Sequence record: NZ_CP090008.1
Reading direction: 5' to 3' (one strand)
DNA length: 64,000 bases
Origin: a plasmid
Shown: positions 9,255-44,588 of the stretch, piece by piece
Numbering within the stretch: position 1 is the stretch's first letter
Layout of the letters: each line of letters begins with the position of its first letter
Made by a program: the position numbers and the translations under genes
The notes under the pieces: generated by a model
What the model saw: only the letters and a program-made list of their open reading frames with translations
Database searches by the model: none
Told to the model about the DNA's origin: nothing

Positions 9255-11198
9255 ATGAAGGAGAGGACTAACCATAATCTTAGTAAGACTCCTTATATTG
9301 ACAAATACACAACAGACCTTACTGAGAAAATCAGACCCAAGCGTCAAGATTTTGTGGCTTGGGGTAGACAAGATGAAATCAGACAAGTCTTTATCTCACT
9401 GAATCGATTAGAAAAAAACTCTCCTGTACTAATTGGTGAAGCTGGTGTAGGTAAAACAGCTATTGTAGAAGGAATTTGTGCGGATATTCTTAACAAGAAA
9501 GCCCACGTCCCAACACGTTTCCAAGGTAAGCAGGTTAAGCAACTAGAATTATCTGCTATCCAAGGGAAAGAATTTGACCATACAGGTAAAGAGGTGAACA
9601 TCATTGCCAAAATGGACGGATTGATTAAAGAGTTTATGGCTCACAAAGATGAGTTTATCCTCTTTATTGATGAAGTGCATACCATTATGGGAACAGGTGT
9701 TGAGGGAAGTGCTCTTGACGTCGCTAATAGCTTGAAACCAGCCTTATCTCGTGGGGAAATCTATCTTATTTCAGCCACTACAGCTGATGAGTTTATGATT
9801 ATCGAACGAGACCCAGCGATGGAACGACGTCTGCAACCAGTTTACGTTGATGAACTGGACAAAGAGGCATCTATTTTGGTCTTGAAAAAACGTCGTCCCA
9901 AGTATAAACGAGAACTTGATATTGAGATTCCTACTGATGCCATTAAGGCAGCAGTAGAATTATCTATTCGTTATGTCACGGATAAAATGCTTCCGGATAA
10001 AGCTATTGATATTATTGATGAAGCTTCAGCGACTGCAAATATCGATGGGAAATCAGAGATTACCTTAAAAGATATTGCGAGTGTCATTCACCGTAAAAAA
10101 GGTATTCCTATGGAAAGTCTTCTACGCACGTCCTCAACACCAGTGGATTTTGCAGAAGGTATGCGTGCTGTTGTTAAGGGGCAAGACCATGTGATTCGAA
10201 CTATAGCACGCCTTATGTATAAAGGTATCCAGGGTGGGCAGAACAAGCGAAGACCTCTAGGAACTCTTCTTCTACTTGGAACAACAGGTACAGGTAAAAC
10301 TGAATTGGCGAAACAAGCAGCAAAACAACTGTTTGGTAGTGAAGAAGCGATGATTCGGCTGGATATGTCAGAATACATGACTGATAATGCTGTTGTTCGT
10401 CTTATAGGAAATGACGAGCGAAAAGGTGACTTAACGGAGAAAATTAAGAAGAATCCCTACTCGTTAGTACTATTGGACGAGTTAGAAAAGGCTCATCCAG
10501 ATGTATGGGCTTTATATTTGCAAATGCCTGATGACGGGCATTTGACTGATGGACGTGGACGAAAAATCAATTTTAAGAATACGTTTATCATTGCGACATC
10601 AAACGTGGGGCATAAGCGAATCAGAGATAAATATATCACCTCTGGTCAAACCTTTACAGAAATGAACAAGACTGACTATAAAGAGTTCATGAAGGATATG
10701 AGAGACGAGTTAATCAAAATCTTTAAGCGTCCTGAATTTATCAACCGTTGGAAAATTGAAGTGACTAATATCTTGACGAAACAAACCATTGATAAGATTG
10801 TCTATTCAAAAATGGCAGTACATGAGAGTACTTGGTTTAAAGAGCATCATATCCTTATTAATTATGAGGATGTTAAGGATGGTGACCAAATTATCGATGG
10901 CAAAAAATACTTCTATGAATATCTCAGTAGTGTCGGTGTTAGTCCAGAAGATGGAGCAAGGCCTTTAGAGAGAACTATTGATGAAGTGTTAACTGATGAA
11001 ATCTTTGAGCAATTGTATTTCCTTGGGCGAAAGCCAGAAGATTACTTTATGGTTGATGTGTCTTTATCTGGACATGCACCAGGAACGTTTGCGTATGGGA
11101 ACTCAGGTAGAAAGACAGTTCAAGATAGACGTCAGACACATATTACTGTCAAACGGATACCTCCAGAGGAGTATGGTAACTATTTGCTTACTTCTTAA
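9255..11198 (+). CDS. ClpA/ClpB-family double AAA+ ATPase lacking N-domain
   Basis: D1: RQDEIRQVFISLNRLEKNSPVLIGEAGVGKTAIVEGI (Clp D1 signature); D2: VKGQDHVIRTIARLMYKGIQGGQNKRRPLGTLLLLGTTGTGKTELAKQ...MIRLDMSEYM (Clp D2 signature); 647 aa, too short for N- and full M-domains. Confidence 0.75.
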   Translation: MKERTNHNLSKTPYIDKYTTDLTEKIRPKRQDFVAWGRQDEIRQVFISLNRLEKNSPVLIGEAGVGKTAIVEGICADILNKKAHVPTRFQGKQVKQLELSAIQGKEFDHTGKEVNIIAKMDGLIKEFMAHKDEFILFIDEVHTIMGTGVEGSALDVANSLKPALSRGEIYLISATTADEFMIIERDPAMERRLQPVYVDELDKEASILVLKKRRPKYKRELDIEIPTDAIKAAVELSIRYVTDKMLPDKAIDIIDEASATANIDGKSEITLKDIASVIHRKKGIPMESLLRTSSTPVDFAEGMRAVVKGQDHVIRTIARLMYKGIQGGQNKRRPLGTLLLLGTTGTGKTELAKQAAKQLFGSEEAMIRLDMSEYMTDNAVVRLIGNDERKGDLTEKIKKNPYSLVLLDELEKAHPDVWALYLQMPDDGHLTDGRGRKINFKNTFIIATSNVGHKRIRDKYITSGQTFTEMNKTDYKEFMKDMRDELIKIFKRPEFINRWKIEVTNILTKQTIDKIVYSKMAVHESTWFKEHHILINYEDVKDGDQIIDGKKYFYEYLSSVGVSPEDGARPLERTIDEVLTDEIFEQLYFLGRKPEDYFMVDVSLSGHAPGTFAYGNSGRKTVQDRRQTHITVKRIPPEEYGNYLLTS

Positions 11199-16312: not shown

Positions 16313-17149
16313 ATGCCAGGTTTAATTGAAGAACCAGTATTGACAAAAAAAGAACTTAGAAAACGAAATAAAGAACTTAAGAAACAAAAAAAAGAAGAGG
16401 CACGTAAAAGTAAACAAGCTAAGAAGAAGGAAAAACAAACACAATATGAAAGTATCGACCTTGGTGAACGTGCCGGAGAGGAATTTGTGTATGTTCCACT
16501 TAATAAGAAGAAACGTAAAGATTTTTTAGACACTGTTGCGATAACTGATGTGAAGTCTATCCTATATGGCTATCCTAATCAACCGATACGATTAGCTAAT
16601 GGCTATTCAGGATATGTGCAGATTTTTGAGGTGTTTGGGCAAGATATTCAAGCGATGTCTAACGAAGAACAGGCAGCAATTAAAGTAGGATTCACTCTTT
16701 TTCTGTCTGGGACTGCCTTTGACATGATGATCCAGACAACAAAATTGCCAACAGATGTCTCAAGTCAATCTAACGAATTGCTACGTCTGCTAGATGAAGT
16801 CAAACAAGAACAGAACGCTCCAGAATTGATCATCAATGATGGTGATGACATTGATACCATTTCACGTAAAGAGAGACTTGTTTATCAACTTAGACAAAGA
16901 GAAGATATTTTGAAAACAAAATATCTCGTCCAACAAGTCATTGCGATCAATCAACAAAATATCGAGTTCTTTATTTGGGTGTTTGGAGATACTTTAGCTG
17001 AAATTGATTCCAATACCCGTACCACACTAACGATTGCCTCAAACCACGGATTTAGCCCAAAAGTTGTATCTGTCGAAAAGAAGGAAGAGCTATTGACTCA
17101 ATATTACAACTTTAATGATTCACTTAATGTTTCACTTAATCAGTACTAG
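16313..17149 (+). CDS. conjugation-module protein with Lys-rich N-terminus
   Basis: ATG at 16313 preceded by AGGAGG; the annotated 16241 start is just the translated promoter element; KKELRKRNKELKKQKKEEARKSKQAKKKEK. Confidence 0.5.
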   Translation: MPGLIEEPVLTKKELRKRNKELKKQKKEEARKSKQAKKKEKQTQYESIDLGERAGEEFVYVPLNKKKRKDFLDTVAITDVKSILYGYPNQPIRLANGYSGYVQIFEVFGQDIQAMSNEEQAAIKVGFTLFLSGTAFDMMIQTTKLPTDVSSQSNELLRLLDEVKQEQNAPELIINDGDDIDTISRKERLVYQLRQREDILKTKYLVQQVIAINQQNIEFFIWVFGDTLAEIDSNTRTTLTIASNHGFSPKVVSVEKKEELLTQYYNFNDSLNVSLNQY

Positions 17150-30463: not shown

Positions 30464-30995
30464 GGCTCTATAATTTCTGTAGTAGGTAAAACCACTGTAG
30501 GAATTATGGAGTCTATGTTTTTGTAGAAAAAAAGCCCCATAAGACCTATAATGAAAAAGTGGCCAAACCCTCATTAGAAAGAATCTTATGGAACAATTAA
30601 ATTTTATCACAAACATACTTGGAATTAATGACAAAAATATTTTTATCTTAGATTATCTTGATGCTGGAACGCATAAAGAAGTCATTGCTAAGCTCGATTA
30701 TCCTGCCTCTAAATGTCTCAACTGTCAAGGACAAATGGCTAAATATGACTTTCAAAAAGAATCCAAAATCCCCTACCTCGAATGTGCTGGCTACAAGACT
30801 CTCATTCGATTGAGAAAACGCCGTTTCCGCTGTAAAGACTGTGGAAAACATACTAAGATTAGTAGTGAAGAAATCTCCGATGGGAGAGAGTACTCACTAC
30901 TTTTTCTTTATGTTAAAGTAGTGGTGTCTTGTAAAGTCGTAGGGCTCTATGGCGCTAGACGTCGCTTGACAAACTGGCAAGACACCTTGTTTTAG
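30464..30995 (+). mobile_element. ISL3-family IS left end + truncated transposase (N-terminal 90 aa only)
   Basis: GGCTCTATAATTTCTGTAGTAGGTAAAAC terminal repeat; ORF 30588 N-terminus MEQLNFITNILGI...CLNCQGQMAKYDFQKESKIPYLECAGYKTLIRLRKRRFRCKDCGK is the ISL3 zinc-finger N-domain, then frame decays. Confidence 0.7.
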
Positions 30996-31091: not shown

Positions 31092-32015
31092 ATGCGTGCA
31101 GTATTTGGAATTGATGTAAGTAAAACAAGCTCTGAGGTGGCCATTTTAGTCAACAGTAAGAAGATTAATGGCTACACCATACTCAATGATGCCATTGGGT
31201 TCAATCGCCTGTTGGGCGACTTGAAAACTGTTCATAAACCAACTTACGTGCAGGAAGAAGTTTATCAACACCTGCGTGATTTAAGCCGTTTCTATCAAAA
31301 TATGACAGAAGATCTTGTTCAAACTAAAAACTGTCTGCACAAGGTCCTACAAGTCACCTTTCCTGAATTGGAAAATCTATTATCCACCCCTACTGGAGAG
31401 CAATATTGGAACTTAGTGATGGCTTTTCCATGCAAAGAGTTTATATTAAGCTTATCTCAAAGTAACTTGTGTGAGATTATCCGTCAATCTACCTCCAAAC
31501 GCATCTCTGAAAAGCGTATTGCTTACCTGACTGATAAACTTATAAAACTTGCTAAACAATCTCTTTGTGCGGTCAAGAAAACCTCTCCAATGCTTGAAGA
31601 GGTTCGTTACTATGCTCAAGAATTGCTTCGTCTTTCTGAACGCAGACAAGTTGTCTTAAACGACATGGTAGCTCTAGCTCAGCCTTTACCAGAATATGAC
31701 ATCTTACGGTCAATTCCTGACATCGCAGAAATCACAGCGACATCTATCATTGGCGAATTGGAAGATATTCGTCGCTTTCAGTCTACCAATCAAATCAACG
31801 CTTTTATTGGCATTGACCTGAGACACTATGAATCTGGGAACTTTCTCGCCAAGGAACACATCACTAAACGAGGTAATCCCTATGTCAGAAAAATCTTGTT
31901 CAAGTGCATTCACAACATCGCTTCAGCTAGTCATACCAATCCTTGTCATATCCCAGATTTCTATGAGAAATGTATTACCTCATTACGCATAACAAACTTT
32001 ACGATTACTCTTTGA
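31092..32015 (+). mobile_element. IS110-family transposase (possibly C-terminally truncated, 307 aa)
   Basis: MRAVFGIDVSK N-terminus and DEDD-type N-domain typical of IS110; shorter than usual ~400 aa. Confidence 0.65.
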
Positions 32016-32542: not shown

Positions 32543-32773
32543 ATGAATGGGATAGGTTATATACTTAGGAGGTTACGGAAAGAAAAAGGGATTACACAGA
32601 GAGTTATCTATACAAATCTTTGTAGTCGAAAGCAACTTTCTAGGATAGAAAATAATACATCTTTCCCATCAGTATATCTTTTATATCATATTTGCCAAAG
32701 ATTAGAAGTGACAATAGATGAAGTTATCAAATTAACATTAGAAGGAGAAAGTAATGGCAATCAGCACAAGTGA
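32543..32773 (+). CDS. short XRE/Rgg-like HTH transcriptional regulator (76 aa)
   Basis: ILRRLRKEKGITQRVIYTNLCSRKQLSRIENNTSFPSVYLLYHICQRLEV; overlaps start of QueA-like gene. Confidence 0.6.
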   Translation: MNGIGYILRRLRKEKGITQRVIYTNLCSRKQLSRIENNTSFPSVYLLYHICQRLEVTIDEVIKLTLEGESNGNQHK

Positions 32774-33800
32774 ATTAAAGTATGAATTACCGGTCGAATT
32801 AGCTGCTCGACAACCTATAGAACTGACATCGAGTAGAAGGGATGGAACTAGATTAATAGTAGGTTTTAAAAACTCTCAAAAAATCATTGATGATGTTTTT
32901 ACAAATTTTACTAACTATATAAATTCAGGAGACTTACTTATTTTAAATAATAGTAAAACAATTTCACCAATTTTTTATGCATATTCCGATAAATATGGAG
33001 AGGTGAAATTTCATATTAAGACTAAGACTGATTTAGGATATGTATCATATATCAGAATTAGAGAAGATTTAAAAGATAAAATTATTGGTGAGAACTTTAT
33101 TGTAACTGATGAAATAGAAGTATCTGTAAATAAACGAACTGAAGGCGATGAATTTTTGTGTAGTTTTAATTGTTCTGAAGAGGATTTGTATAACTATTTA
33201 TTAATTAATGGTGAGGCAGTGAAATCAATTTATACAAAGAAAAAATGGTCAATTGATTATTATCAAAATGAAGTTGCAAATAAATTAGGATCTTTTGAAA
33301 ACCCAGCAGCGAGTCGGCACTTTACTAATAAAATGTTAAATATTTTACGTGAAAAAGGGGTAAGAATCGCGTATATTACTTTAAATTGTGCTTCGGTTGA
33401 TACAAAAATTTTTGAGGATATTATAGAGAAACATGTTGTTTTTAAGGAATACTATGAGATCCCCGAAGAAACAGTAAGATTAATTCAAGAAACAAAATTA
33501 AACGGTAATAAGGTGTTTGCGGTTGGAACTACAGTTATTAGGACTTTAGAAAGCTGTAATTATGATAATTTCAGAATTACTTCCCCTTTAAAAAATTATA
33601 CTGATTTATATATTCATCCTGGACATAATTTTAAAGTAACAGATGCTTTAATTACAAATTTTCATGGATCAATGACTAGTAGACTTGCTCTTTCTGCAGC
33701 TGCAATTGGTGTGGATAATATTATGAATTTATACAAACATGCAATCGAAGAAAAATATTTATTTTATGAGTTTGGGGATGCGAATTTATTATTCATGTAG
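32754..33800 (+). CDS. QueA-like S-adenosylmethionine:ribosyltransferase-isomerase paralog
   Basis: Collinear with QueA: YELPVELAARQP..., GDLLILNNSKTI, VGTTVIRTLES (QueA VGTTSTRTLE), ITNFHGSMTSRLALSAA, YKHAIEEKYLFYEFGDANLLF (QueA YxHAxEExYRFFSFGDAMLI). Confidence 0.75.
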   Translation: MAISTSELKYELPVELAARQPIELTSSRRDGTRLIVGFKNSQKIIDDVFTNFTNYINSGDLLILNNSKTISPIFYAYSDKYGEVKFHIKTKTDLGYVSYIRIREDLKDKIIGENFIVTDEIEVSVNKRTEGDEFLCSFNCSEEDLYNYLLINGEAVKSIYTKKKWSIDYYQNEVANKLGSFENPAASRHFTNKMLNILREKGVRIAYITLNCASVDTKIFEDIIEKHVVFKEYYEIPEETVRLIQETKLNGNKVFAVGTTVIRTLESCNYDNFRITSPLKNYTDLYIHPGHNFKVTDALITNFHGSMTSRLALSAAAIGVDNIMNLYKHAIEEKYLFYEFGDANLLFM

Positions 33801-33831
33801 TTTAGTAAATAACTAGAAAGGGGGTGATGAT

Positions 33832-33906
33832 ATGAAGAAGTTGACATTGAAAGAACTGGTTGATAAAAATAATGATTTGCTCTCACGTTGCACAATCAAT
33901 AAATAA
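33832..33906 (+). CDS. candidate 24-aa precursor peptide MKKLTLKELVDKNNDLLSRCTINK
   Basis: Strong RBS AAAGGGGGTG 6 nt upstream; located between QueA-like and PqqD-like genes. Confidence 0.4.
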   Translation: MKKLTLKELVDKNNDLLSRCTINK

Positions 33907-33972
33907 TTAACCACGGAAAAATCCAATGAAGAATGATATTATTTCTTCATTGGAGTTTATTTTGGAGGGCTT

Positions 33973-34239
33973 ATGCTTTATAAAGTTAATCGAGACGTAG
34001 AAATAACAGAAGAAAATGGATATCAAGTTATTCATAGATATTCAGATGATTCGTATTTTTCCTTAGAAAATGATACTTTGTTTATTTTATTGAGTTATAA
34101 TGGTTTAAATAAATTGCAAGATATTGCAAAAAGCTTTGCAAAATATAAAGGAATTTCTAATAACAAAGCTTTAGAATACGTAGAACAAATCCAAAAATAT
34201 TTAGTTTCAGAAGGAATAATTGTCATAGATGAGAACTAA
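33973..34239 (+). CDS. PqqD-like (RiPP recognition element) protein
   Basis: 88 aa; ...FSLENDTLFILLSYNGLNKLQDIAKSFAKYKGISNNKALEYVEQIQKYLVSEGIIV matches PqqD pattern. Confidence 0.55.
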   Translation: MLYKVNRDVEITEENGYQVIHRYSDDSYFSLENDTLFILLSYNGLNKLQDIAKSFAKYKGISNNKALEYVEQIQKYLVSEGIIVIDEN

Positions 34240-35095
34240 ATCTAAGTTATTTAATAATATAGCAGAAGATAATATAGACTCCCTTTATGTACAATTGTGT
34301 AATTTAATATATAAAAATGGTAAAGTTGTAATTTCGAGAGGCATGGAGGTAAAAGAATTAATTGGGGTTAACTTAATTTTAACTAATCCCAAAAGACGCT
34401 TTTTAGAAAATGCCAACAGAAAATTAAAACTATACTACGCTATTGGAGAATTCATATGGTATATGAGGGGGAGTAATAGTTTAGAGGAAATTCAGTATTA
34501 TGCCCCTAGCATGTCACAGTTTTCTGATGATGGTTCTATTCTTCAAGGAGCTTATGGACCTAAGATTGTAACTCAAATCGATAAATTGATTACACTGCTA
34601 AGACATGACAAGGGGACTCGTAGGGCAGTTTTACCTATTTATTCTGCGAGTGAATTAGGTAAAGATAGTAAAGATATCCCATGCACACTCACATTAGAGT
34701 TTTTGATTCGAGCTAATAAGCTTCATCTCATTGTCAATATGAGATCAAACGACATATTTTTGGGGCTTCCGTATGATATTTTTTCTTTCACAATGATTCA
34801 GGAATACATTGCAAATAAGATAGGTCTAAATTTAGGATATTATTATCATAATATCGGAAGCTTACATGTCTATAAGAAACATTTTGATAGAATAAAAGAA
34901 ATATCAACTATGAATATACATAAAACATCAGAATTCAATAACTCAAATTTAATCTTTAAAAATTTAAGTGATTTGTTAAACATTGAAAAATCAATTAGAA
35001 ACGGAAGTCCATACAATATGAGCAAGGAATTACTTAATAATTCGGATTTCAATAGAATAAAGATTGAACTAGAGAAATATAAGGATAGTAGGTGA
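34229..35095 (+). CDS. thymidylate synthase-fold pyrimidine-nucleotide hydroxymethylase/methylase-like enzyme
   Basis: LKLYYAIGEFIWYMRGS (ThyA WKGVLEELLWFLKGS), RRAVLPIYSASELGKDSKDIPCTLTLEFLIRANKLHLIVNMRSNDIFLGLPYDIFSFTMIQEYIA (ThyA RRIIMSAWNP...PPCHALCQFYV...[25 protein letters not shown]); catalytic Cys retained. Confidence 0.7.
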   Translation: MRTKSKLFNNIAEDNIDSLYVQLCNLIYKNGKVVISRGMEVKELIGVNLILTNPKRRFLENANRKLKLYYAIGEFIWYMRGSNSLEEIQYYAPSMSQFSDDGSILQGAYGPKIVTQIDKLITLLRHDKGTRRAVLPIYSASELGKDSKDIPCTLTLEFLIRANKLHLIVNMRSNDIFLGLPYDIFSFTMIQEYIANKIGLNLGYYYHNIGSLHVYKKHFDRIKEISTMNIHKTSEFNNSNLIFKNLSDLLNIEKSIRNGSPYNMSKELLNNSDFNRIKIELEKYKDSR

Positions 35096-35098
35096 GAA

Positions 35099-35683
35099 AT
35101 GTCTATCGGAAAACTAATCTATATATGTGGAATTGATGGTTCTGGGAAAACAACATTAGCCAAGAATCTTTCTAATCATTTTGGTGATAAATCAATATTT
35201 TTGCCATTAAATAATTCAAAAAGATTCATTAATGAAATTGATAGTTTCTGTAAAGAGTATAATACAGACAGGTGGAGTATATTTTCAGAATATTTTAGGG
35301 GAAATATTTGGGCGTTAGAGCTAGTTTATTTTTGTGAAAATATTTTAAAACCCGCTCTAAAAAAGTACGAATATGTATTCATCGATAGATATTATATATG
35401 TAATGCTATATATTCTAATTTATTAGTCACTAATAAGTTGGTTAATAGACTGCATGAATTACTGATTAAACCAGACATGGTTTTTTATATCAATATTAAT
35501 CCAGAGATCGCTTTTGAAAGAATTTTAAAAAGGAATGAGCAAAAAACGCCGAAAGAAAGTTTGGACAATTTAAAATTAGCTTCTGATTTATATTCAAGAT
35601 ATCTTGAAGATAAAAGTTATTATGAATTAGACGGAGAGAAGTCAGAGAATCAAATTTTAAAGTCTGTATTACAAATTATTTAG
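35099..35683 (+). CDS. dTMP-kinase-like P-loop nucleotide kinase
   Basis: LIYICGIDGSGKTTLAKNL (Tmk Walker A GIDGxGKTT); 194 aa. Confidence 0.65.
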   Translation: MSIGKLIYICGIDGSGKTTLAKNLSNHFGDKSIFLPLNNSKRFINEIDSFCKEYNTDRWSIFSEYFRGNIWALELVYFCENILKPALKKYEYVFIDRYYICNAIYSNLLVTNKLVNRLHELLIKPDMVFYININPEIAFERILKRNEQKTPKESLDNLKLASDLYSRYLEDKSYYELDGEKSENQILKSVLQII

Positions 35684-35699
35684 AATTTAGGATTAAGAT

Positions 35700-36689
35700 A
35701 TGAAATTTGAAACAGTACTAGATTTTTATATATACTATTTGGAAATCCTTCTGAAAAGGGAAAAAAATCATACTAAAGTTGTCCCATTTTCGGAGATAGC
35801 TAATAAAGTCGAGGTTTTCAACAATAGTATTGAGATTGTTCAAGGAACTCATAGTAATATGCTATTTAGTAGATCTGAATTTAATTATAATGTAGTGCAT
35901 ATGCTATATTCTTTGAGTGGGAGAACAGATTCATATATATTAAAAAAATATAAAAGTTCATATTGGCGATATTCGAATGAGGGATTTTATGTCAATACAA
36001 TTGGGGAGCGGTTATATACTTTATATGGTAATCAAATTAAACGTTGTGTAAATTTTTTAAAAGAAAATATTTATACGTCAGATGCCGTTTGTTTTATGAA
36101 ATCTTTTGAAAATGAAAATATTGAATGTACTCTAAATCTTCATTTTTATTATAGAGATAATCGATTAAATTTGGAGTTATCATATAAAGGTTCTAGTTTA
36201 TTAGAGTATACTAACTCCGATCTATTTATTTATTCTTCTTTACTTTCATTAATGAGCCATTGGTTAGATGTGGAACCTGGAAGTTTATTTTTAAAATGTC
36301 ACTCGATTTTTATTTCAGAAAATGATCTAGAAAGAGCTAAGAAACTATTAGAAATTGGTAAATCGTTGAGAAATATTGGTATTTCAATGAATCATAGGTT
36401 TTCATCCAGTATTGAAACTTATCGTTCAGAATTTTCTGAAGCTATCAATAGAATAATTGCTTGGGATACTGTTGATATTACTCAGAGAGTTTCTGAGGAA
36501 TTAGAGTATATAAAAAAGTATTTTACTCCATATATTCAAGACTTGTTACTTATTCTTTTAGCGGATAGATTTCATCAAACTGATAGTGATTATAAAATAG
36601 TATTGAGTCAGCTCTCAGATAGGTCAATTGGGAAATTTAAGGAAACAATTGATAAAATACAATTTAATAAATTATTAGAGGTAATTTAA
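35700..36689 (+). CDS. second thymidylate synthase-fold paralog
   Basis: SDAVCFMKSFENENIECTLNLHFYYRDNRLNLELSYKGSSLLEYTNSDLFIYSSLLSLMSHWLDVEPGSLFLKCHSIFI aligns to ThyA C-terminal half incl. catalytic Cys position. Confidence 0.55.
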   Translation: MKFETVLDFYIYYLEILLKREKNHTKVVPFSEIANKVEVFNNSIEIVQGTHSNMLFSRSEFNYNVVHMLYSLSGRTDSYILKKYKSSYWRYSNEGFYVNTIGERLYTLYGNQIKRCVNFLKENIYTSDAVCFMKSFENENIECTLNLHFYYRDNRLNLELSYKGSSLLEYTNSDLFIYSSLLSLMSHWLDVEPGSLFLKCHSIFISENDLERAKKLLEIGKSLRNIGISMNHRFSSSIETYRSEFSEAINRIIAWDTVDITQRVSEELEYIKKYFTPYIQDLLLILLADRFHQTDSDYKIVLSQLSDRSIGKFKETIDKIQFNKLLEVI

Positions 36690-36691
36690 AT

Positions 36692-36952
36692 TTGATAATT
36701 AAAAAGAGTCTTGCTGCTATACAACGTTCAGTATCAGGAAATGAATTTTTGTTAAATTTACTTACTGATAGGACTTTTCTCCTTAATGAAGTTTCTCTCT
36801 ATATTTGGAGTAATCTTGGAGAATGTAGTACTGAGGAAATAGCTGCAAATTTATCTAAAATGTATAATGAAAAAACCGAGATAATTCAAAATGATGTAGA
36901 TGAAGTTATTAATATTTTACAGGAAGAAGGGTTAATTGAAATTCTGAATTAA
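36692..36952 (+). CDS. PqqD-family RiPP recognition element protein (TTG start)
   Basis: LLNEVSLYIWSNLGECSTEEIAANLSKMYNEKTEIIQNDVDEVINILQEEGLIE = classic PqqD pattern. Confidence 0.65.
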   Translation: MIIKKSLAAIQRSVSGNEFLLNLLTDRTFLLNEVSLYIWSNLGECSTEEIAANLSKMYNEKTEIIQNDVDEVINILQEEGLIEILN

Positions 36953-36970: not shown

Positions 36971-37657
36971 ATGGCTGAAATTATTTATAGTATGATTGCT
37001 AATGAGATTTCAGAGCAATTGTCAGAGGATAATATTGTAATTTGGAAATCTGAGATGGATGGACTGGGGACCTCATTATCTGATATCGATGCATATTGTA
37101 TCTGCAAGGAAGAAAAAGTAATAAAAAGCTTTGTATATGAAGGGACACCGGTTGATATTGAATATGTGACTTCGGAAAGGCTAAAAGCTAAAATTAATAA
37201 AATTTATCAATACACTAATCATGGTGATATTTATAAAGGATTAGATGAAGATTTGAAATTATTTTACAGATTACAAAGAGGAGAGAAATCAGCTAAATTT
37301 TCATTGATTGGAGTTGAAGTTCCCACACTTGAGGAAATTTCTAAGATTGCAGCACAATATTATTATGAATTATTTTTAGGTCTGTATGAAGATGCTTATA
37401 AAATGTACCATGGGAAAAATAAATTAGATTCTTTTGTCCTTTCCCTAGAGACATTACAAATGTCTATTGCAACTTATTTAGCTAGGGTAGGGAAACCACA
37501 ATTTAAGAAAAAATGGCTATTTAAATATTTTAATATAGTAGCTAACAATTCCCTATATAAAGATTTAATTACACAATTAGAATCAACACAGGAATATGAT
37601 TTAATGGAATTCACAGAGAGTATACTAGTCAATTCAAAAAAGCTTCTAGAAATTTAG
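36971..37657 (+). CDS. Pol-beta superfamily nucleotidyltransferase
   Basis: MDGLGTSLSDIDAYCI (G[SG]x9-13Dx[DE] motif). Confidence 0.55.
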   Translation: MAEIIYSMIANEISEQLSEDNIVIWKSEMDGLGTSLSDIDAYCICKEEKVIKSFVYEGTPVDIEYVTSERLKAKINKIYQYTNHGDIYKGLDEDLKLFYRLQRGEKSAKFSLIGVEVPTLEEISKIAAQYYYELFLGLYEDAYKMYHGKNKLDSFVLSLETLQMSIATYLARVGKPQFKKKWLFKYFNIVANNSLYKDLITQLESTQEYDLMEFTESILVNSKKLLEI

Positions 37658-37857
37658 TATATTGAAAGGAGGTGAGATTATGGTCTATAAAAAACCTATT
37701 GTTGAAGATATTAAATTAAGTGCCTCTGCATTACTTGTATAATATCTTAGTATAAGTCGGAGAGTTGAACAGAATAATTATGTAGTTAATATGACTAACA
37801 GGAAGTATTACTACAAAAAATTCTGTTCAACTTTCCATTTTTTATAGAGTAATAAAA

Positions 37858-38664
37858 ATGAGCAAAATTAGGTATATCATAATAAAGATACTATTACATC
37901 AATTTTACGGAATCAAAAATATAAAATTAATAAATTGTGTTAAAAATATGAATAAAGTTTATATTTTTGAAGATATCAACAAAAAGGTCAAAATGGTTTT
38001 AAAAGTAGAATCTGAAAGAAGAATTAATTCGATCAAGTACCAACATATATTTTCCAATTATGGGATATCGCCAAAAATAATTAAAACTAGAACAGGAAGA
38101 CAGTATATAAAGATTTATAGATTGGTAATATTTGTACAAGAGTATGTAACATCTAGTAAAAGAAAGGTCACTTCAACAGAGATTGTGGGATTTTTAAAAT
38201 ATTTTTACGGAAAAATGGATGAAATAAGAGAATATTTACCCGAAGTTTTGACTACTTATCCATTATATAAGCAAGGCGCATTAAGTAAATGGTTTTATGT
38301 AGTCCATGGTGATTTACGTCCACAAAATATTATCATTACCAGGGATAGTTTTAGCGTGATTGATTTTGAGTATTTAAGTCTAGGAATTCGAGAAACTGAA
38401 ATTCTCAAGTTAATTATAATAATTTGTAAATATCAAAGTAATTTGATTGAATCGCTATATTCTAAATTCTTAGAATCAGACGTAATAGAAATGCATATAG
38501 AGGAGGCGATAAGGGTTCTTTTGTATGATCTTCTTAAATCAAATTTTCCTGAAAAGGTCAAGAATAATATTCCAAAGAATTATTTTTTAGAAATAACTTC
38601 TGAAAGGGAGGCATTAATAAACTTTTGCCATACATATTTAAAAAGAAAGGAATCCCAAAAATGA
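37858..38664 (+). CDS. APH/choline-kinase-like phosphotransferase
   Basis: FYVVHGDLRPQNIIITRDSFSVIDFEY (HGDxxxxN ... IDFE catalytic/Mg motifs). Confidence 0.6.
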   Translation: MSKIRYIIIKILLHQFYGIKNIKLINCVKNMNKVYIFEDINKKVKMVLKVESERRINSIKYQHIFSNYGISPKIIKTRTGRQYIKIYRLVIFVQEYVTSSKRKVTSTEIVGFLKYFYGKMDEIREYLPEVLTTYPLYKQGALSKWFYVVHGDLRPQNIIITRDSFSVIDFEYLSLGIRETEILKLIIIICKYQSNLIESLYSKFLESDVIEMHIEEAIRVLLYDLLKSNFPEKVKNNIPKNYFLEITSEREALINFCHTYLKRKESQK

Positions 38665-39710
38665 TTTCAACTGAGATTGAGAAAAAATATCTACTTACAA
38701 AAGAAGAATTTCTATCCTTTAGTAGAGATTTTTTTAAAAGTGCAAAAATTCAAGAACAAACTAATTATTATTTTGATAGTTTAGATTTTTCACTATTAAA
38801 GAGAGGAATGACTCTTAGAATTCGAGAAAAATATGATAAATATATTTTAACATTAAAGAAAAAGAAATCAGTCAAAATAATTGTAGAATCGGAAGAAATT
38901 AATTTCGTAATTACACCGCAAGACTTTCAAGAGGCAATCTTAACTGGAGAATTTCCCCAAAATGTAAAGAAAGAACTAGACTCATTAATTCCCGAAAAGA
39001 AAATTTTTTATCTAGGTTTTCTAAAAACTAAAAGATATGTAATCGAAAAAAATTCTTTGATATATTGTTTAGATAAAAATAATTATTTTGGAAAGGAGGA
39101 TTTTGAATTAGAAATTGAAGGAACAGAGAAAGGACTAAAAGAAATTGAAATTGATATTTCCAAGAGCAAATCTAATAATGTTGGAAAATATGCTAGATTT
39201 ATTGATGAATTATTGAAAGGAAACGGTAATTATCTGATTAAAACTCAAGTGTCTGCAATTATTCTTAATAAAAGTAGCGATAAAGTTTGTCTTATTAAGA
39301 AGGATATTCCAACCTCAAGTATACATAATATGTGGCTTCCACCCGGTGGACATATCGATTTTGGAGAAAATTTAATAGATGCTGTCAAAAGAGAGGTCTA
39401 TGAAGAGACAGGGTTAGAAGTTACGGTTTCAAAATTATCTAGCATTGTATCGTTTCATCAAAAAAAGGCAGAGCAAGCTATTTGTTTCTTTTATGTCGCA
39501 GAATCCCAAAATATTAATGAAATAAATGTCACTGAGCCAGGCATTGAATGCAGGTGGTTTAATTTAAAAGATATACTAAGTGGAGATGATATAAATATGA
39601 CATCCTATCATAAGCTTATAATATCCGACTTGCAAGATAACAGGATTTTATATTTGAATTTAAAAAAATCTGATAATCAATATAATATTGAAAATATAGT
39701 TCATATTTAA
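38661..39710 (+). CDS. CYTH (triphosphate tunnel) - NUDIX fusion protein
   Basis: N-terminus MISTEIEKKYLL (CYTH EIE[RK]KFL start); C-terminal Nudix box GGHIDFGENLIDAVKREVYEETGL; ATGA overlap with kinase gene. Confidence 0.6.
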   Translation: MISTEIEKKYLLTKEEFLSFSRDFFKSAKIQEQTNYYFDSLDFSLLKRGMTLRIREKYDKYILTLKKKKSVKIIVESEEINFVITPQDFQEAILTGEFPQNVKKELDSLIPEKKIFYLGFLKTKRYVIEKNSLIYCLDKNNYFGKEDFELEIEGTEKGLKEIEIDISKSKSNNVGKYARFIDELLKGNGNYLIKTQVSAIILNKSSDKVCLIKKDIPTSSIHNMWLPPGGHIDFGENLIDAVKREVYEETGLEVTVSKLSSIVSFHQKKAEQAICFFYVAESQNINEINVTEPGIECRWFNLKDILSGDDINMTSYHKLIISDLQDNRILYLNLKKSDNQYNIENIVHI

Positions 39711-39894
39711 AAGATTAAAACTAGTTATATATAAAATCTAGGTATAACTGTTCCACTGAATTCCATAGATATAATTAGCTTCTTAAATGTAGGGCTATTT
39801 TATAGCTTGAATATACAATATAAGTGCACAATAAAAACTCATAAGATTTTCTAGTAAAATAGAATTGAACGAACTAGTTACGAAAGGAAATCTT

Positions 39895-40881
39895 ATGAGC
39901 TACCATCATTTTACTATAGATGAACGTGAAAGCATTCTCGTTTACCGTACGCATGACCTAAATTTTTCTCAAATTGCTAAATCACTTCATCGTCATTAGT
40001 CTAGCAGTAGTGGTGAGTGGCAACGACATCTTAAAGAAGGAAGCTATTCTCCAAGTCATGCATAGGAATCTTATCATATGGCTAAATCACACTGTGGGCG
40101 GAAACGTATGCTTGAAATAGATCACAATTTAAGCAATACCGTCAAACATCTATTTCTCGATTACCAATGGTCTCCCGAAGAAATAGAAGGTCGGTTGCGA
40201 TTAGAGTATGGAAAAACTGTTATTAGTTATCAAACAATCTATAGAGCCATTTACAGAGGGCATTTTGATGATAACTCACTATCTCATGGTGCTCGTGGTG
40301 TCATTCGAAAGCTCCGTCATCGTGGTAAAACACGTCATACAAAAGGTTATGTCGAAAATAGAGGGAAAATCTCTATATCTCATACAATTCACGAAAGACT
40401 AGAAGATGCTAATAACCGAACTAGAATAGGAGATTGGGAAGCCGATACTGTTGCAGGTAAAACTAGAAAAGCTTGTTTAGTGACTCTAACTGACCGTTAT
40501 TCTCGTTTTCTAAAAATCCAGAAGGTAGCTGTCAAGAAAAGCAAGTTGGTAATAGAAGCTATGGTAAAAATGTTAGAGCCCTTGACGAAGCATACAATAA
40601 CTCCTGATAGAGGGAAAGAATTCACGTATCATCAGAAATTGAGCGATCAATTGAACATTGAAGTCTATTTTCCTGACCCTCATGCTCCATGGCAACGAGG
40701 AACCAATGAGAACACGAAAGGATTACTTTGAGAGTATTTTCCAAAGGGTAGTGATCTAACATTGGTTGATGATCAGACTATTCAGCTGTGGGAGAACAAA
40801 CTTAATAATAGGCCACGAAAATGTCTTAACTGGAAAACACCTTATGAAGTATTCTATGGGGAAAGTATGCACTTAATTTGA
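39895..40881 (+). pseudogene. IS30-family transposase, disrupted by stop codons/frameshift
   Basis: MSYHHFTIDERESILVYR...(stop)...RIGDWEADTVAGK...TPDRGKEF...HAPWQRGTNENTKGLL(stop)EYFPKG; reading frame broken at least twice. Confidence 0.7.
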
Positions 40882-40953: not shown

Positions 40954-41745
40954 ATGCTACTAGCTGTAATAAGAAGAAACTGGCAGATGTATAAAAGATA
41001 TTTTCCAGTAACATTGTTTTTTAATAGGGGTTTGGATGCTGGTTTTACTCTATTAGGTTTGTGGTTAATAGCGAATTTTTTATTCGCAAATAACATTAAA
41101 GTTGGTAATGCTATAGAGTACTCAGATTACTTCAGTTATGCTGCAGTAGGATTGGTTTATTATAATGCATCAATTGCTATTCTGATGAATGTAGGGAGAG
41201 CATTAATAACAGAAGTTAGAGAAGGCACTCTTGAAAGTACATTAGTATCTCCTTTTAACATTGTCTATTATTACTTAGGAATCTTTTTAGAGCAGTTTGT
41301 AAGGACCTTTTTGGAATTTCTATTTTCTTATATAATTGCTATTTTGCTCGGTGCAGATTTACAACAAATTACATTACTGATTTTATTGCTTGGCTTCTTA
41401 TATGTTTCGATTTGCTCTTTTTCGATGGGGGTATTCCTATCAAATATAATGTTGTGGTTTAGGGATACATTCATTAGTCAAAATACAATTTTTCTGATAA
41501 TCTTCTTGGTCTCAGGCATTACCTTTCCAATAGAATTATTGCCAAAATTTTTAAGGGTGATTAGTAATTTTATACCGTTAACATATTCTATTAAGGCAAT
41601 AAGAACCTTATATTTGGAAACCCAGACGAGTATGATCAATCTTAGCTTTATACAAGGTTTACTACTTTCAATATTATACTTCTTGATAGGGATTCTGGTA
41701 TATAATAAGGTTGAGAAAAAAATTGTAAGTGATGTTTCATATTAA
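40954..41745 (+). CDS. ABC-2 type exporter permease
   Basis: 263 aa, 6 TM helices. Confidence 0.6.
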   Translation: MLLAVIRRNWQMYKRYFPVTLFFNRGLDAGFTLLGLWLIANFLFANNIKVGNAIEYSDYFSYAAVGLVYYNASIAILMNVGRALITEVREGTLESTLVSPFNIVYYYLGIFLEQFVRTFLEFLFSYIIAILLGADLQQITLLILLLGFLYVSICSFSMGVFLSNIMLWFRDTFISQNTIFLIIFLVSGITFPIELLPKFLRVISNFIPLTYSIKAIRTLYLETQTSMINLSFIQGLLLSILYFLIGILVYNKVEKKIVSDVSY

Positions 41746-41763
41746 GTGAAGGAGAGAAATAAA

Positions 41764-42744
41764 ATGTATGAAGTATTCAATATTTCAAAAGATTATGTAA
41801 CAAAAAAGAGAATAGGATTGTTTAAACATAAAAAAGAAGTTAAAAAAGCTATACAAGATGTAAATTTATCAGTCCCTAGAGGTAAAATTATTGGTGTTTT
41901 AGGAGAAAATGGTGCAGGGAAAACAACTTTAATAAAGATGATGACAACACTTCTATCAAGTGATACTGGAAAAATTTTGATAGATGGAGTTGACATTAAT
42001 CAAAATGTAAAAAATACTCGAAAAAGGATCAACATCATTAGTGGAGGAGAAAAAAATCTCTATTGGAGATTGACTGCAGTTGAAAATTTACTCTATTTTG
42101 CTTCTCTGTACGGTCTTCCAAAGAAAGAGGCATTACCTAAGATAGATAATTTATTGAATGAATTAGGGCTTTGGGAAAGTAAGGATACTCCTGTAGAAAA
42201 ATTTTCAAAGGGAATGAAGCAACGCTTACAAATTGCTAAAGGACTAATCAATGATCCAGAATATTTATTTCTTGATGAACCTACACTAGGTCTAGATGTC
42301 AGTATTGCTTACGAGTTGAGAAAAAAATTAAAAGAGATAGCGGCTAAGCGGAATACAGGAATTTTGTTAACAACTCACTACATGGCTGAAGCAGATGAAT
42401 TATGTGATTATATTTATTTTTTAAAACATGGTAAAGTAATTGTGTCAGGTACCAAAACACAGGTTTTTGAACAATTACAGATGACACCAGAGCTTCATGT
42501 CATCCTTTCAGATAGGGATGATGAAAATTCTTCAAAGCTGGCTCAAGTTAGTCGTTTATTTCCATGTATAATTTTGGAAAAATTTGGTAGTAGTATATTG
42601 TTGAAATTCTCTCTTTCAGAATATAATGTGCAGGATATAATAAAAAGCCTATATAATAATCAAATTGAAATTAAGGAAATAAGATATAATGAGCCTACTC
42701 TTGAAAATGTTATTCTAAATTTAGGAGGAAAGAGCTTAAAATGA
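41764..42744 (+). CDS. ABC transporter ATP-binding protein
   Basis: Walker A GENGAGKTT, LSGG-like KFSKGMKQRL, Walker B LFLDEP. Confidence 0.75.
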   Translation: MYEVFNISKDYVTKKRIGLFKHKKEVKKAIQDVNLSVPRGKIIGVLGENGAGKTTLIKMMTTLLSSDTGKILIDGVDINQNVKNTRKRINIISGGEKNLYWRLTAVENLLYFASLYGLPKKEALPKIDNLLNELGLWESKDTPVEKFSKGMKQRLQIAKGLINDPEYLFLDEPTLGLDVSIAYELRKKLKEIAAKRNTGILLTTHYMAEADELCDYIYFLKHGKVIVSGTKTQVFEQLQMTPELHVILSDRDDENSSKLAQVSRLFPCIILEKFGSSILLKFSLSEYNVQDIIKSLYNNQIEIKEIRYNEPTLENVILNLGGKSLK

Positions 42745-43535
42745 ATTCGATAATAGTTAGTACTTTTAAGAGTGAATTTAGAAGAACATTTTTAAATGAC
42801 AGTATTAATAAATTTTATTTTTTTTCAATGATACTTTGGCCAATTATTTCTCTAATTCAAATTTTTTACAATATGCAAGCCTTTCCAATTACGGATATAC
42901 AAATAGCATCTCTAAGATATGAAGACCAATTAATTTATTTTATATTTATTGGTTATTGTGTTTACATCATTTTTTCAAATGCTGTTCAGAGTGCATGGAG
43001 GCTTGGTGGAGAACGATATCAAGGAACTCTTAGTCAAATTTTTATTGCTCCAATTAAAAAAAATCTATGGCTTTATGCACGTACCTTATCACTTATTTTA
43101 AGTAATTCATGGTTTTTTATCACTATTTTTATTATTGGAAATTTTGTCTATTCTGATGCTTATGAATATATTCTTGCGTCCACTTTTATTTTAGTTGTTG
43201 CATCCTGGATTTGGGCAAGTTTCTTAGGTAGTATTTGTATCAGTTTGAGAGATGCAACGGTAGTTTATGTATTATTGGAGAGCTCTCAAAATACTTTTAG
43301 TGGTGCTAAAGTTCCATTATCAAAATCACCTCGATTAATAAAAGTTATAGGGAGTTTATTTCCCATTAGCTACACAATTATTTATCTAAGAGATATACTT
43401 CTTTATAAAGAGATTATAAGTATAAGTGCTATTTGGTGCTTATGCATAAATATCTTTGTTATTTTATTAACGAAGATAGTGTTAGAAGTTGGAGAAAGAC
43501 ACATGAAAAAAGTGGGCAGTTTTGATTTATTTTGA
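42741..43535 (+). CDS. ABC-2 type exporter permease (second)
   Basis: 264 aa, 6 TM helices, ATGA overlap with ATPase gene. Confidence 0.6.
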   Translation: MNSIIVSTFKSEFRRTFLNDSINKFYFFSMILWPIISLIQIFYNMQAFPITDIQIASLRYEDQLIYFIFIGYCVYIIFSNAVQSAWRLGGERYQGTLSQIFIAPIKKNLWLYARTLSLILSNSWFFITIFIIGNFVYSDAYEYILASTFILVVASWIWASFLGSICISLRDATVVYVLLESSQNTFSGAKVPLSKSPRLIKVIGSLFPISYTIIYLRDILLYKEIISISAIWCLCINIFVILLTKIVLEVGERHMKKVGSFDLF

Positions 43536-43789: not shown

Positions 43790-43988
43790 CTACCATATTT
43801 TCAACCTTGCAATCAAGTGCAATACATATTTTCAATAAAATATCAGTAGTGATATTTTCCCCTTTTCCTAATTTTGCTAGAGAAGAGGAGCTAATCCCTA
43901 CTTCTTGCCGGAGCTTTGTTTTGATTCAACCTTTATCAATGAGAAGTTTCCATAATTTATTATAACTAAACTTCATCTGAGTTTTTTC
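43790..43988 (-). pseudogene. XRE-family HTH protein with in-frame TGA
   Basis: rc reads MKFSYNKLWKLLIDKG(stop)IKTKLRQEVGISSSSLAKLGKGENITTDILLKICIALDCKVENMVEIVD. Confidence 0.55.
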
Positions 43989-44588
43989 CTTTGTTCCATG
44001 AAATACCGTAGAGTTCATTTCCGTTACTAGAGAGTCTCAGTACAGTATTTTCTGACAAGAGATGATTAGCTTCTGGATAATACGAGATAGCTTTATCAAA
44101 GGATAAAAAGACTTGTTTGTTCAATGATTTTGATTGGTCATATAGCTTCAACAGGGCTTCGGTTGCTTGGTAACTAATATTACTTAAGAGTAATGAATCA
44201 TGGGCAAGTGCTGGAAGATTAGTTAGATAGAGTATTGCTAAATCGTACAATATCATTCCTTTGAACTTAGTTCCTGTACCGTCGTCGTCAGGGGTATAGA
44301 AGGAATAGCTATTATAGGTTCTGAGGATAATTTGAGGAGCTTTGCGAATATCTGGATAAAGGAAATCATTGAATTCTCGCATTTTAGCATTGATTTTTCC
44401 TTCTAGCTCTATTAGAATGTGATCCAACGCTACTGTATTTTCAAAACTAATATATTCTGTTGGGTTTTCAATCCCATAAACAGATTGCAGTAGGTCTAGC
44501 CAAAAAGACTGGCTCTCTTGTCTTTCTCTACCACGGTTTTCCCAACGCTTAATAAAAGCCTTGGCTTGTTTTTTTCTGTTCTCTAGTG
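43966..44588 (-). pseudogene. N-terminal fragment of an MmeI-like (Type IIL/IIG) restriction enzyme or related PD-(D/E)xK protein; frameshift in A7 tract
   Basis: rc: ATG AAC ACT AGA GAA CAG AAAAAAA then, in the +1 frame, QAKAFIKRWENRGRERQESQSFWLDLLQSVYGIENP... (cf. MmeI N-terminus ...KRWEDASDENSQAKPFLIDFFEVFGI as I recall it); ORF stops after ~207 aa. Confidence 0.35.

Follow-up and report, generated by a model that had tools for sequence, protein, structure and literature searches.

The 64,000-nucleotide stretch of plasmid NZ_CP090008.1 analysed here (the window) carries a 24-codon small open reading frame (ORF), smORF-A, between a gene for a paralog of QueA, an enzyme that uses S-adenosylmethionine (SAM), and a gene for a small PqqD-like protein. 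The explanation that best fits the evidence is that smORF-A is the translated precursor peptide of an undescribed family of peptides that are made ribosomally and modified post-translationally (RiPPs), recognised by a RiPP recognition element (RRE) and modified on its single conserved Cys; the whole of this reading, chemistry included, is given a probability of roughly 0.6. The cluster works like an RRE-guided RiPP pathway, and it probably defines a new RiPP family. The features on which the argument turns are, in order (aa, amino acids):

32754..33800, plus strand: QueA paralog, SAM ribosyltransferase-isomerase fold (PF02547 at 1.4e-73)
33817..33827, plus strand: extended Shine-Dalgarno sequence of smORF-A, AAAGGGGGTGA, a match to AAAGGRGGTGA
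33832..33906, plus strand: smORF-A, candidate 24-aa precursor peptide (conserved ORF, leader L-K-E-L-V, core L-S-R-C)
33922..33965, plus strand: 12-bp stem-loop (33922-33954) and then a U-rich tract, terminator-like, between the precursor and the downstream genes
33926..34000, plus strand: smORF-B, rejected as a gene
33973..34239, plus strand: RRE1, discrete PqqD-type RRE of 88 aa (hhalign, AlphaFold2 model, Foldseek)

Close relatives of the cluster were found through contigs encoding relatives of its 228-aa nucleotidyltransferase and by a scan of species genomes, and distant ones by searching 1.8 billion representatives in full with HMMER. The close set comprises a metagenomic locus (L001, 80% identical) and a 64%-identical type (L004 and L006-L009) whose hosts are Streptococcus mitis, an uncultured Streptococcus and a Gemella metagenome-assembled genome (MAG). 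The same architecture recurs in Brevibacillus panacihumi W25 (L011) and on three metagenomic contigs (L012, L013 and L029/L030), and a plasmid search recovered the full cluster from the conjugative plasmid pGeo12a of Geobacillus thermodenitrificans T12 (L032, NZ_CP020031.1). Besides the window's own, seven further cluster types have a small ORF between the QueA paralog and the PqqD-like gene, at identities to the window of 28-76% for the nucleotidyltransferase or 39-76% for the QueA paralog, and every one of these ORFs is preceded by an extended Shine-Dalgarno sequence.

smORF-A and the hairpin that follows it

The first-pass annotation of this DNA, made from its letters, proposed two candidate precursor ORFs upstream of the PqqD-like gene, smORF-A and smORF-B, with correct coordinates and translations. 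A 24-codon ORF means little by itself, because 97 ORFs of at least 20 aa overlap 9.5 kb of this AT-rich DNA. What, then, marks smORF-A as a gene? Its initiation signal is of a kind rarely met in the window: AAAGGRGGTGA occurs twice in the 64 kb against 0.07 matches expected, each time just 5' of a conserved small ORF, smORF-A in one case and smORF-C (described below) in the other. The opinion that smORF-A has the strongest ribosome-binding site (RBS) of the cluster holds in so far as AAAGGGGGTGA is a very strong extended Shine-Dalgarno sequence, but smORF-C has a perfect one, AAAGGAGGTGA, at 37665-37675.

The pattern of substitution points the same way. L001 encodes the identical peptide with two synonymous changes, and the S. 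mitis/Gemella type (L004, L006-L009) keeps the 24 codons, the frame and the stop; in one S. mitis genome the start is GTG instead of ATG, a swap by which the start codon is retained. Between the window and L004 there are 9 synonymous changes over 13.8 sites and 11 non-synonymous changes over 58.2 sites, that is, proportions of synonymous (pS) and non-synonymous (pN) differences of 0.65 and 0.19 (Fisher p = 0.0016), similar to the values of seven flanking genes (pS 0.54-0.80, pN 0.13-0.27). Codons 1-12 hold five of the synonymous changes and one non-synonymous change, codons 13-24 four and ten; the N-terminal half is conserved and the C-terminal half is variable around one invariant Cys. Conservation in homologous clusters, core residues above all, had been suggested as a check on the peptide; the ORF is conserved, and in its core Cys20 is invariant. 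The stop codon lies 66 nt from the start of RRE1, on the same strand. smORF-A is very probably a real protein-coding gene.

The small peptide ORFs are missing from the gene calls and annotation tables examined, an example of how such precursors get overlooked. No NCBIfam model matches any of the small peptides, and the 49-aa Brevibacillus peptide (L011), used as a protein query, retrieved only its own entry, annotated as ‘hypothetical protein’. Four sequencing runs guessed to be RNA gave only scattered low-depth contigs of 151-232 nt, indistinguishable from DNA.

smORF-B has a different history. As first described, it exists, has a weak RBS and overlaps the RRE1 start, but it is not a second precursor. 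Its 24-codon frame is unbroken only in the window and in the ~80%-identical L001; in all S. mitis/Gemella-type clusters 10-nt and 1-nt indels break it after nine codons, and no counterpart is found in L011, L012, L013, L029 or L032. Its DNA consists of the 12-bp stem-loop (33922-33954) and the GGAGG of the next gene: the start lies within the 5' arm of the hairpin, and the 3' part spans the GGAGG, the ATG and the first nine codons of the RRE1 gene. Two pairs of the stem and one of the outer stem keep pairing despite changes on both sides. smORF-B was thus ruled out as a gene by the indel breakage, the hairpin with its compensatory changes and the RBS overlap, and its being a second precursor peptide is hardly credible. 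The ORF at 33926 was also dropped as an alternative RRE1 start, since it is in a different frame.

The hairpin itself is a regular element of these clusters. The folding energy of the window stem-loop corresponds to z = -3.9, a strong non-homologous stem-loop stands at the same position in L011, L012, L013 and L029 (z -2.7 to -4.5), and an inverted repeat can be read by eye in L032; a hairpin follows the peptide gene in all folded cluster types. Bacteriocin operons commonly have a hairpin after the structural gene. The one described here would be a leaky terminator or a stabiliser, through which the precursor message may come to exceed the messages of the enzymes.

The same facts allow another view of smORF-A, as a regulatory upstream ORF whose translation controls the hairpin and downstream expression and which does not serve as a substrate. 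In favour of this are the shortness of the ORF, its strong Shine-Dalgarno sequence and the U-tailed stem-loop that begins 16 nt past its stop and precedes the RBS of the next gene. The view is very unlikely, in that clusters with 20-45% identity between their enzymes have amino-acid motifs in common and not just an ORF, the core is repeated in some homologs, binding to the RRE is predicted for the L011 homolog, and the hairpin sequence is wholly different between clusters while the peptide motif is constant. No alternative anti-terminator pairing was noticed, although no search was aimed at one.

Leader, core and recognition element

The divergent homologs of smORF-A define what is kept in the peptide. 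Five of them have a strong Shine-Dalgarno sequence and occupy the slot between the QueA paralog and the RRE:

L012, 4954-5046: smORF-A homolog, 30 aa
L013, 4958-5041: smORF-A homolog, 27 aa
L029, 5974-6045: smORF-A homolog, 23 aa
L011, 2587-2736: smORF-A homolog, 49 aa
L032, 10402-10557: smORF-A homolog, 51 aa

In a further, metagenomic cluster, L034, the Cys peptide (a 31-aa ORF with a YxxP leader and the core L-S-C-C) lies just 3' of the RRE and not between the QueA paralog and the RRE. Common to the homologs are a leader motif, [LF]-x-E-hydrophobic, and a core motif, [FL]-[SAN]-x-C. Across the divergent homologs no alignment column other than Met1 and the Cys is invariant, and the Cys is so in all eight cluster types that have a peptide. 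In the L011 and L032 peptides the core is tripled as a tandem repeat (F-[SAN]-K-C-R), and there is an additional N-terminal YxxP segment. Two modification sites had been suggested at first sight: an internal Cys, which fits, being the sole invariant residue besides Met1, and the C-terminal TINK, which is unconserved, as the two to five residues past the Cys vary and the last one is K, S, Y, A, G or R. With its conserved leader, variable core and invariant Cys, smORF-A behaves as the leader-plus-short-core precursor beside an RRE that the first-pass annotation envisaged.

The presumed partner of the leader is encoded immediately downstream. RRE1 has no match in Pfam or NCBIfam, and BLASTP against the second PqqD-family protein of the cluster (RRE2) gives none either. 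An alignment of its positional orthologs is matched to the PqqD#2 family by hhalign with 97.8% probability (E 1.1e-12), and the L011 ortholog matches PF05402 directly. The AlphaFold2 model, with a mean predicted local distance difference test score (pLDDT) of 89.4, has four short strands that form a sheet and, after them, three helices, where PqqD has a winged-helix fold with a three-stranded sheet and three helices; its best Foldseek matches in the PDB are the lasso B1 proteins TfuB1 (6jx3_B) and TbiB1 (5v1v_A), at template-modelling (TM) scores of 0.84-0.87; both structures were solved with their leaders. Profile-profile comparison and structural model thus bear out the label ‘PqqD-like’ given to this gene at the outset, even though Pfam and NCBIfam gave none, and as judged from these two lines the gene at 33973-34239 encodes a PqqD-type RRE.

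How would such an RRE hold its peptide? A complex prediction for the L011 RRE with its own 49-aa peptide reaches a score of 0.66, the best of three controls reaching 0.02; three runs share at least 80% of the contacts and the partner pLDDT is at least 59. In this model residues 1-15 of the peptide lie on RRE residues 31-40 and 62-87 (strand 3 and helix 3). Of 80 solved complexes 58 reach the mark used, as do 2 of 110 mismatched pairs; these counts are rough, because the alignment was our own. Like complexes have already been solved, and the L011 pass may reflect likeness to them. For the window, RRE1 would bind the leader through the [LF]-x-E-hydrophobic motif. smORF-A is likely an RRE-dependent precursor.

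The structural neighbours of RRE1 raise the question of a lasso peptide. RRE1 resembles lasso B1 proteins: it is a free-standing protein of the PqqD type, about 88 aa long, and its model can be superposed on TfuB1 and TbiB1. The YxxP of lasso leaders recurs in the L011, L032 and L034 peptides and in all smORF-C peptides. In lasso precursors the leader contains YxxP and has Thr as its penultimate residue, and the core is some 14 residues long or longer and carries Asp or Glu at one of positions 7-9. By contrast, the smORF-A leader is without YxxP and its core of seven or eight residues is too short; smORF-C does have YxxP but is 20 residues long in all. Neither a cyclase (asparagine-synthetase-like) nor the B2 transglutaminase-like protease family is present among the ORFs from 31 to 46 kb, and the NCBIfam lasso precursor models missed the peptides (best E 0.06). 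A lasso peptide was ruled out by the absent cyclase and B2 protease and by the short core.

The QueA paralog as candidate modifying enzyme

If the Cys is the modified residue, which enzyme acts on it? The QueA paralog is a constant companion of the peptide. It has a full-length PF02547 match and shares the motifs GTT-x-x-R-x-LE, TNFH and FGD with QueA, but it scores below both NCBIfam QueA equivalog cut-offs (225.5 against 324 bits and 215.4 against 267.45 bits). It is 27% identical to the canonical QueA of S. mitis and 41-47% identical to the paralogs from distant clusters, and the S. mitis carrier has a canonical QueA (477.7 bits) on another contig. Nine paralogs have a known context, and each of them adjoins a PqqD gene or is parted from it only by the small ORF. 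In a tree of the 120 best database matches and the sequences of known context, a single clade (28 tips, support 1.0) contains all nine, and about 100 further QueA matches lie outside it. The window protein therefore fails as a canonical QueA on three counts: the equivalog cut-offs, the separate clade and the separate canonical copy in S. mitis.

QueA paralog, peptide and RRE occur together in every cluster type that has a peptide, whereas the order of the other genes varies. The smallest assembly is L034 (ENA ERZ27287836, 10001-11479), which encodes a PmbA/TldD-like protein, a 286-aa protein, the QueA paralog, PqqD and the 31-aa Cys peptide, with no thymidylate-synthase (TS)-fold or nucleotidyltransferase gene on the 12.5 kb examined. 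That the Cys peptide has its constant partner in the QueA paralog, and not in the nucleotide enzymes alone, escaped the first-pass annotation. It is because of this constant linkage, L034 without nucleotide enzymes included, that the QueA paralog is put forward as the enzyme acting on the peptide Cys, a tentative assignment held at a little under even odds.

Some further observations concern the same gene. The L034 minimal cluster adjoins conjugation genes. In the Gemella MAG (contig C125 8866-9890, L027/L028) the QueA paralog is in three pieces, one with an internal stop, and is either broken or the product of an assembly error. On pGeo12a (NZ_CP020031.1) the paralog is annotated as the housekeeping QueA, and the gene table examined lists neither of the two small ORFs there (10402-10557 and 16589-16654).

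QueA transfers the ribosyl moiety of SAM to the aminomethyl nitrogen of preQ1. By analogy, RRE1 would offer the [FL]-[SAN]-x-C core to the product of the gene just upstream, the QueA paralog, and the paralog, whose substrate in difference to canonical QueA is presumably a peptide, would put a group derived from the SAM ribose on the Cys thiol. With chemistry as in the conversion of preQ1 to epoxyqueuosine, the calculated mass change is +114.03 Da (C5H6O3). In the cluster type of the window the product may then be further elaborated, or joined to a modified cytidine nucleotide, the candidate enzymes being a homolog of the cytidine monophosphate (CMP) 5-hydroxymethylase MilA, two kinases, a second TS-fold protein (TS2), a kanamycin-nucleotidyltransferase (KNTase)-like enzyme with an RRE and a peptide of its own, and a CYTH-Nudix protein; an ABC-2 transporter would export it. 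Spelled out in full, the proposal would be that a clade of QueA paralogs was recruited from tRNA to peptide modification, that it performs an RRE-guided transfer of a SAM ribose-derived carbocycle to a Cys thiol, and that in the Streptococcus-type cluster this was joined to a pathway of the 5-hydroxymethyl-CMP type and to the second, nucleotidyltransferase-linked peptide, giving a peptide-nucleoside hybrid. In this complete form, drawn by analogy, the proposal is doubtful.

Several points weigh against smORF-A as an RRE-bound substrate of the QueA paralog. The binding prediction covers the distant L011 homolog with its N-terminal YxxP leader, a segment that the window's 24-aa peptide is without. 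The cores of the window (L-S-R-C-T) and of S. mitis (L-A-C-C-N) diverge most from the consensus F-S-K-C-[RG], and with about eight independent cluster types known the motifs rest on few sequences. In Bacillus cereus L033 the paralog is directly followed by PqqD, with no small ORF on the part of the contig examined; a TS-fold gene comes next after PqqD. Finally, we know of no QueA-family enzyme that acts on a peptide, and the acceptor of the paralog could be a nucleotide, for instance a C5-substituted cytidine, with a TS-fold enzyme modifying the peptide.

The wider cluster and its relatives

The remaining features of the cluster and its borders are as follows:

30588-30995, upstream of the cluster: ISL3-type insertion-sequence (IS) remnant, zinc-ribbon fragment
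31092-32015, upstream of the cluster: IS110-family transposase remnant
32543..32773, plus strand: XRE-family helix-turn-helix (HTH) regulator, first gene of the operon, its 3' end overlapping the QueA-paralog start (Pfam HTH_19/HTH_3)
34229..35095, plus strand: TS1, TS-fold enzyme nearest the CMP 5-hydroxymethylase MilA (PDB sequence search)
35099..35683, plus strand: dTMP-kinase-like P-loop kinase (PF02223 at 2.4e-22)
35700..36689, plus strand: TS2, second divergent TS-fold protein with a C-terminal extension (PF00303 exactly at cut-off, 24.3 bits)
36692..36952, plus strand: RRE2, PqqD-family protein (PF05402 at 2.4e-11)
36971..37657, plus strand: Pol-beta-type nucleotidyltransferase, 228 aa, helical C-domain, KNTase-like (motifs, model, Foldseek)
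37680..37742, plus strand: smORF-C, the second of the conserved peptide genes, encoding 20 aa (leader with YxxP; C-terminal tail small and aliphatic)
37759..37846, plus strand: intrinsic terminator after smORF-C, long hairpin and U-run (-36 kcal/mol, z = -7.1)
37858..38664, plus strand: APH/choline-kinase-like kinase (PF01636 at 1.3e-5)
38625..39710, plus strand: CYTH-Nudix fusion protein (PF01928 at 3e-21, PF00293 at 2e-15)
39865-40731, plus strand: IS30-like remnant (HTH and rve)
40954..43535, plus strand: ABC-2 type transporter, three genes (PF01061, PF00005, PF12698)

Much of this layout is shared. L001 and L012 have an HTH gene at the place of the window's regulator, the L001 counterpart of the terminator after smORF-C has z = -7.9, the APH-like kinase gene is found in all related clusters, and L001, L011 and L032 have the same three ABC-2 genes 3' of the cluster; the transporter likely serves export or self-protection. 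Overall the cluster looks like two RRE modules with a cytidine-nucleotide tailoring set and an exporter.

TS1 lies much closer to MilA than to thymidylate synthases: a PDB sequence search gives MilA (5b6d/5jnh) at E 4e-37 and thymidylate synthases at 1e-19 or weaker. Its family has an invariant Cys of the catalytic type in DIPCT, and an MRSND motif. TS2 has no sequence match in the PDB, and its family alignment contains a single invariant Cys, C143. Known CMP 5-hydroxymethylase pathways, that of mildiomycin with MilA and that of bacimethrin with BcmA, are comparable through this kinship of TS1, but are without a ribosomal peptide, an RRE or a QueA-like enzyme.

Alternatively, a TS-fold enzyme may itself alkylate the Cys, the thiol instead of water trapping the C5 exocyclic methylene of CMP to give a thioether-linked peptide-cytidylate, with the QueA paralog decorating the nucleotide part. 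Such a route would agree with the kinship of TS1 to MilA, with the invariant Cys of both TS-fold families and with gene order, in that the RRE1 3' end overlaps the TS1 start in the window and the other TS-fold gene directly follows RRE1 in distant clusters; a C5-substituted pyrimidine would also be geometrically like the C7-substituted deazapurine of QueA. L034 speaks against it: its Cys peptide, QueA paralog and RRE occur without a TS-fold gene on the 12.5 kb examined, so that the Cys peptide there needs no TS-fold enzyme, and this route to the Cys is accordingly judged improbable.

A variant of the preferred reading, in which the QueA paralog modifies the Cys of an RRE-bound precursor, concerns the fate of the peptide. 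It is conceivable, if rather unlikely, that smORF-A is a scaffold or carrier on which a small nucleoside-like antimetabolite, derived from the core Cys, is assembled before being cleaved away, as in pyrroloquinoline quinone (PQQ), mycofactocin and the pearlins, the peptide being recycled or discarded. The core is tiny, with two to five residues past the Cys, and is tripled in L011 and L032, as expected if one small unit is made per repeat. Proteases accompany the family (Rce1-like/CPBP in L011, L012, L013, L029 and L032, TldD/PmbA in L034), and the many nucleotide-metabolism and Nudix/CYTH genes would suit a nucleotide antimetabolite and self-protection. On the other side, no protease gene was found among the window ORFs scanned from 32.5 to 43.5 kb, nor is any enzyme of the known scaffold-peptide systems (peptide aminoacyl-tRNA ligase, radical SAM) present; the data do not separate a released small molecule from a modified peptide. 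The cluster does resemble PQQ and mycofactocin systems in combining a small peptide and a PqqD-type chaperone with enzymes that may use the peptide as a base for making a small molecule. It differs in its conserved residue, which is Cys and not Glu/Tyr or Val-Tyr, and the absence of a radical SAM enzyme ruled out either of these two systems.

Microcin C is a further point of comparison, in which a very short ribosomal peptide likewise occurs with nucleotide-handling enzymes and an exporter. Here, by contrast, there is no MccB/ThiF-like adenylyltransferase, smORF-A ends in Lys and not Asn, and the RRE is discrete and of the PqqD type; a microcin C system was ruled out by the absent ThiF family match and the lack of a C-terminal Asn. 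PADLOC anti-phage models run on the cluster proteins gave only generic kinase and Nudix domain matches, so that the cluster fits no defence system listed there.

The second RRE module would be built around the 228-aa protein. It has the Pol-beta signatures G-x-G-T-x-x-S-D-x-D and D-x-E, with G33, S37, D38, D40, D62 and E64 invariant, and its model (pLDDT 90.9) finds 3c18, ANT(4') 1kny/6un8, HalB and LinB by Foldseek, the nearest structures being nucleotidyltransferases of the kanamycin/lincosamide type. The nucleotidyltransferase travels with RRE2 and smORF-C. Thus there is a second conserved peptide gene, but it lies at 37680-37742 and not at 33926, a gene that the first-pass annotation passed over. 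smORF-C is kept in all related clusters (for instance at L032 16589-16654), with Y3 and P6 invariant and with pS 0.50 and pN 0.14. A peptide-nucleotide product, as guessed in the first-pass annotation, is possible.

Several observations concern this module and its variants. The last four residues of smORF-C in the window (37680-37742) and of its homologs (L012 9827-9892, L013 9756-9821, L011 8770-8883) are one variable, two aliphatic and one more; the end of the L012 peptide, C-L-V-T, resembles a CaaX box. A gene for an Rce1-like/CPBP protease adjoins the smORF-C homolog in most distant clusters, and none is present in the window's cluster. A nucleotidyltransferase-like protein, PqqD, a YxxP peptide and an Rce1-like protease are found without the QueA part in L010, L021 and L022. 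In the last two, which belong to the S. mitis family (L021 8709-10676), HhH-GPD, Nudix and ABC-2 genes precede genes for a YxxP peptide of 24 aa, an Rce1-like protease, a nucleotidyltransferase-like protein of 276 aa and PqqD, an arrangement that is related but forms a peptide module of its own. The Bacillales versions (L011 10152-11447, L032 8044-9312, L033 5089-6372) have an extra gene of the Orn/DAP/Arg-decarboxylase family, and B. cereus L033 also has ATP-grasp, carrier-protein and acyl-CoA-dehydrogenase-like genes, which hints at further tailoring without a counterpart in the window.

The cluster family is rare. Among 5.8 billion proteins the 228-aa protein is represented by just three clusters at 90% identity, and a count across 36,145 genera gives its family 12 carriers, most of them weak; QueA lies within 10 kb of the nucleotidyltransferase in none of the 12, a neighbour count that is uninformative because these carriers are far kin. 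Among 401 genomes sampled from the S. mitis family there were one strong and two weak matches. DNA near-identical to the window was found in 16 DNA runs, several of them from food-fermentation metagenomes, and no RNA run is listed as carrying it. The island appears mobile: IS remnants bracket and interrupt it, and the IS30-like piece splits the CYTH-Nudix and ABC genes, which are adjacent in L001. Farther along, the window has a 153-aa DUF2326 fragment (43966-44427, minus strand); in L001 that place is taken by a complete DUF2326 gene of 552 aa, next to which lie MC7, CTD11 and HTH genes and, at a greater distance, a ToxN-like gene, a pattern that suggests a decayed conflict system beside the cluster.

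The literature searched holds no description of this cluster type and no paper that connects RiPPs with enzymes of the QueA-like or TS-fold kind. It is the modifying enzymes that define a RiPP class, and modification of a peptide by a QueA paralog, if true, would found a new one. The peptide of 24 aa with its single invariant Cys, the chaperone that goes with it and the candidate enzyme make up a testable set that could reveal new SAM-dependent peptide chemistry. Given the occurrence of the cluster in S. mitis, a Gemella MAG and food-fermentation metagenomes, its product may act in microbial competition there.

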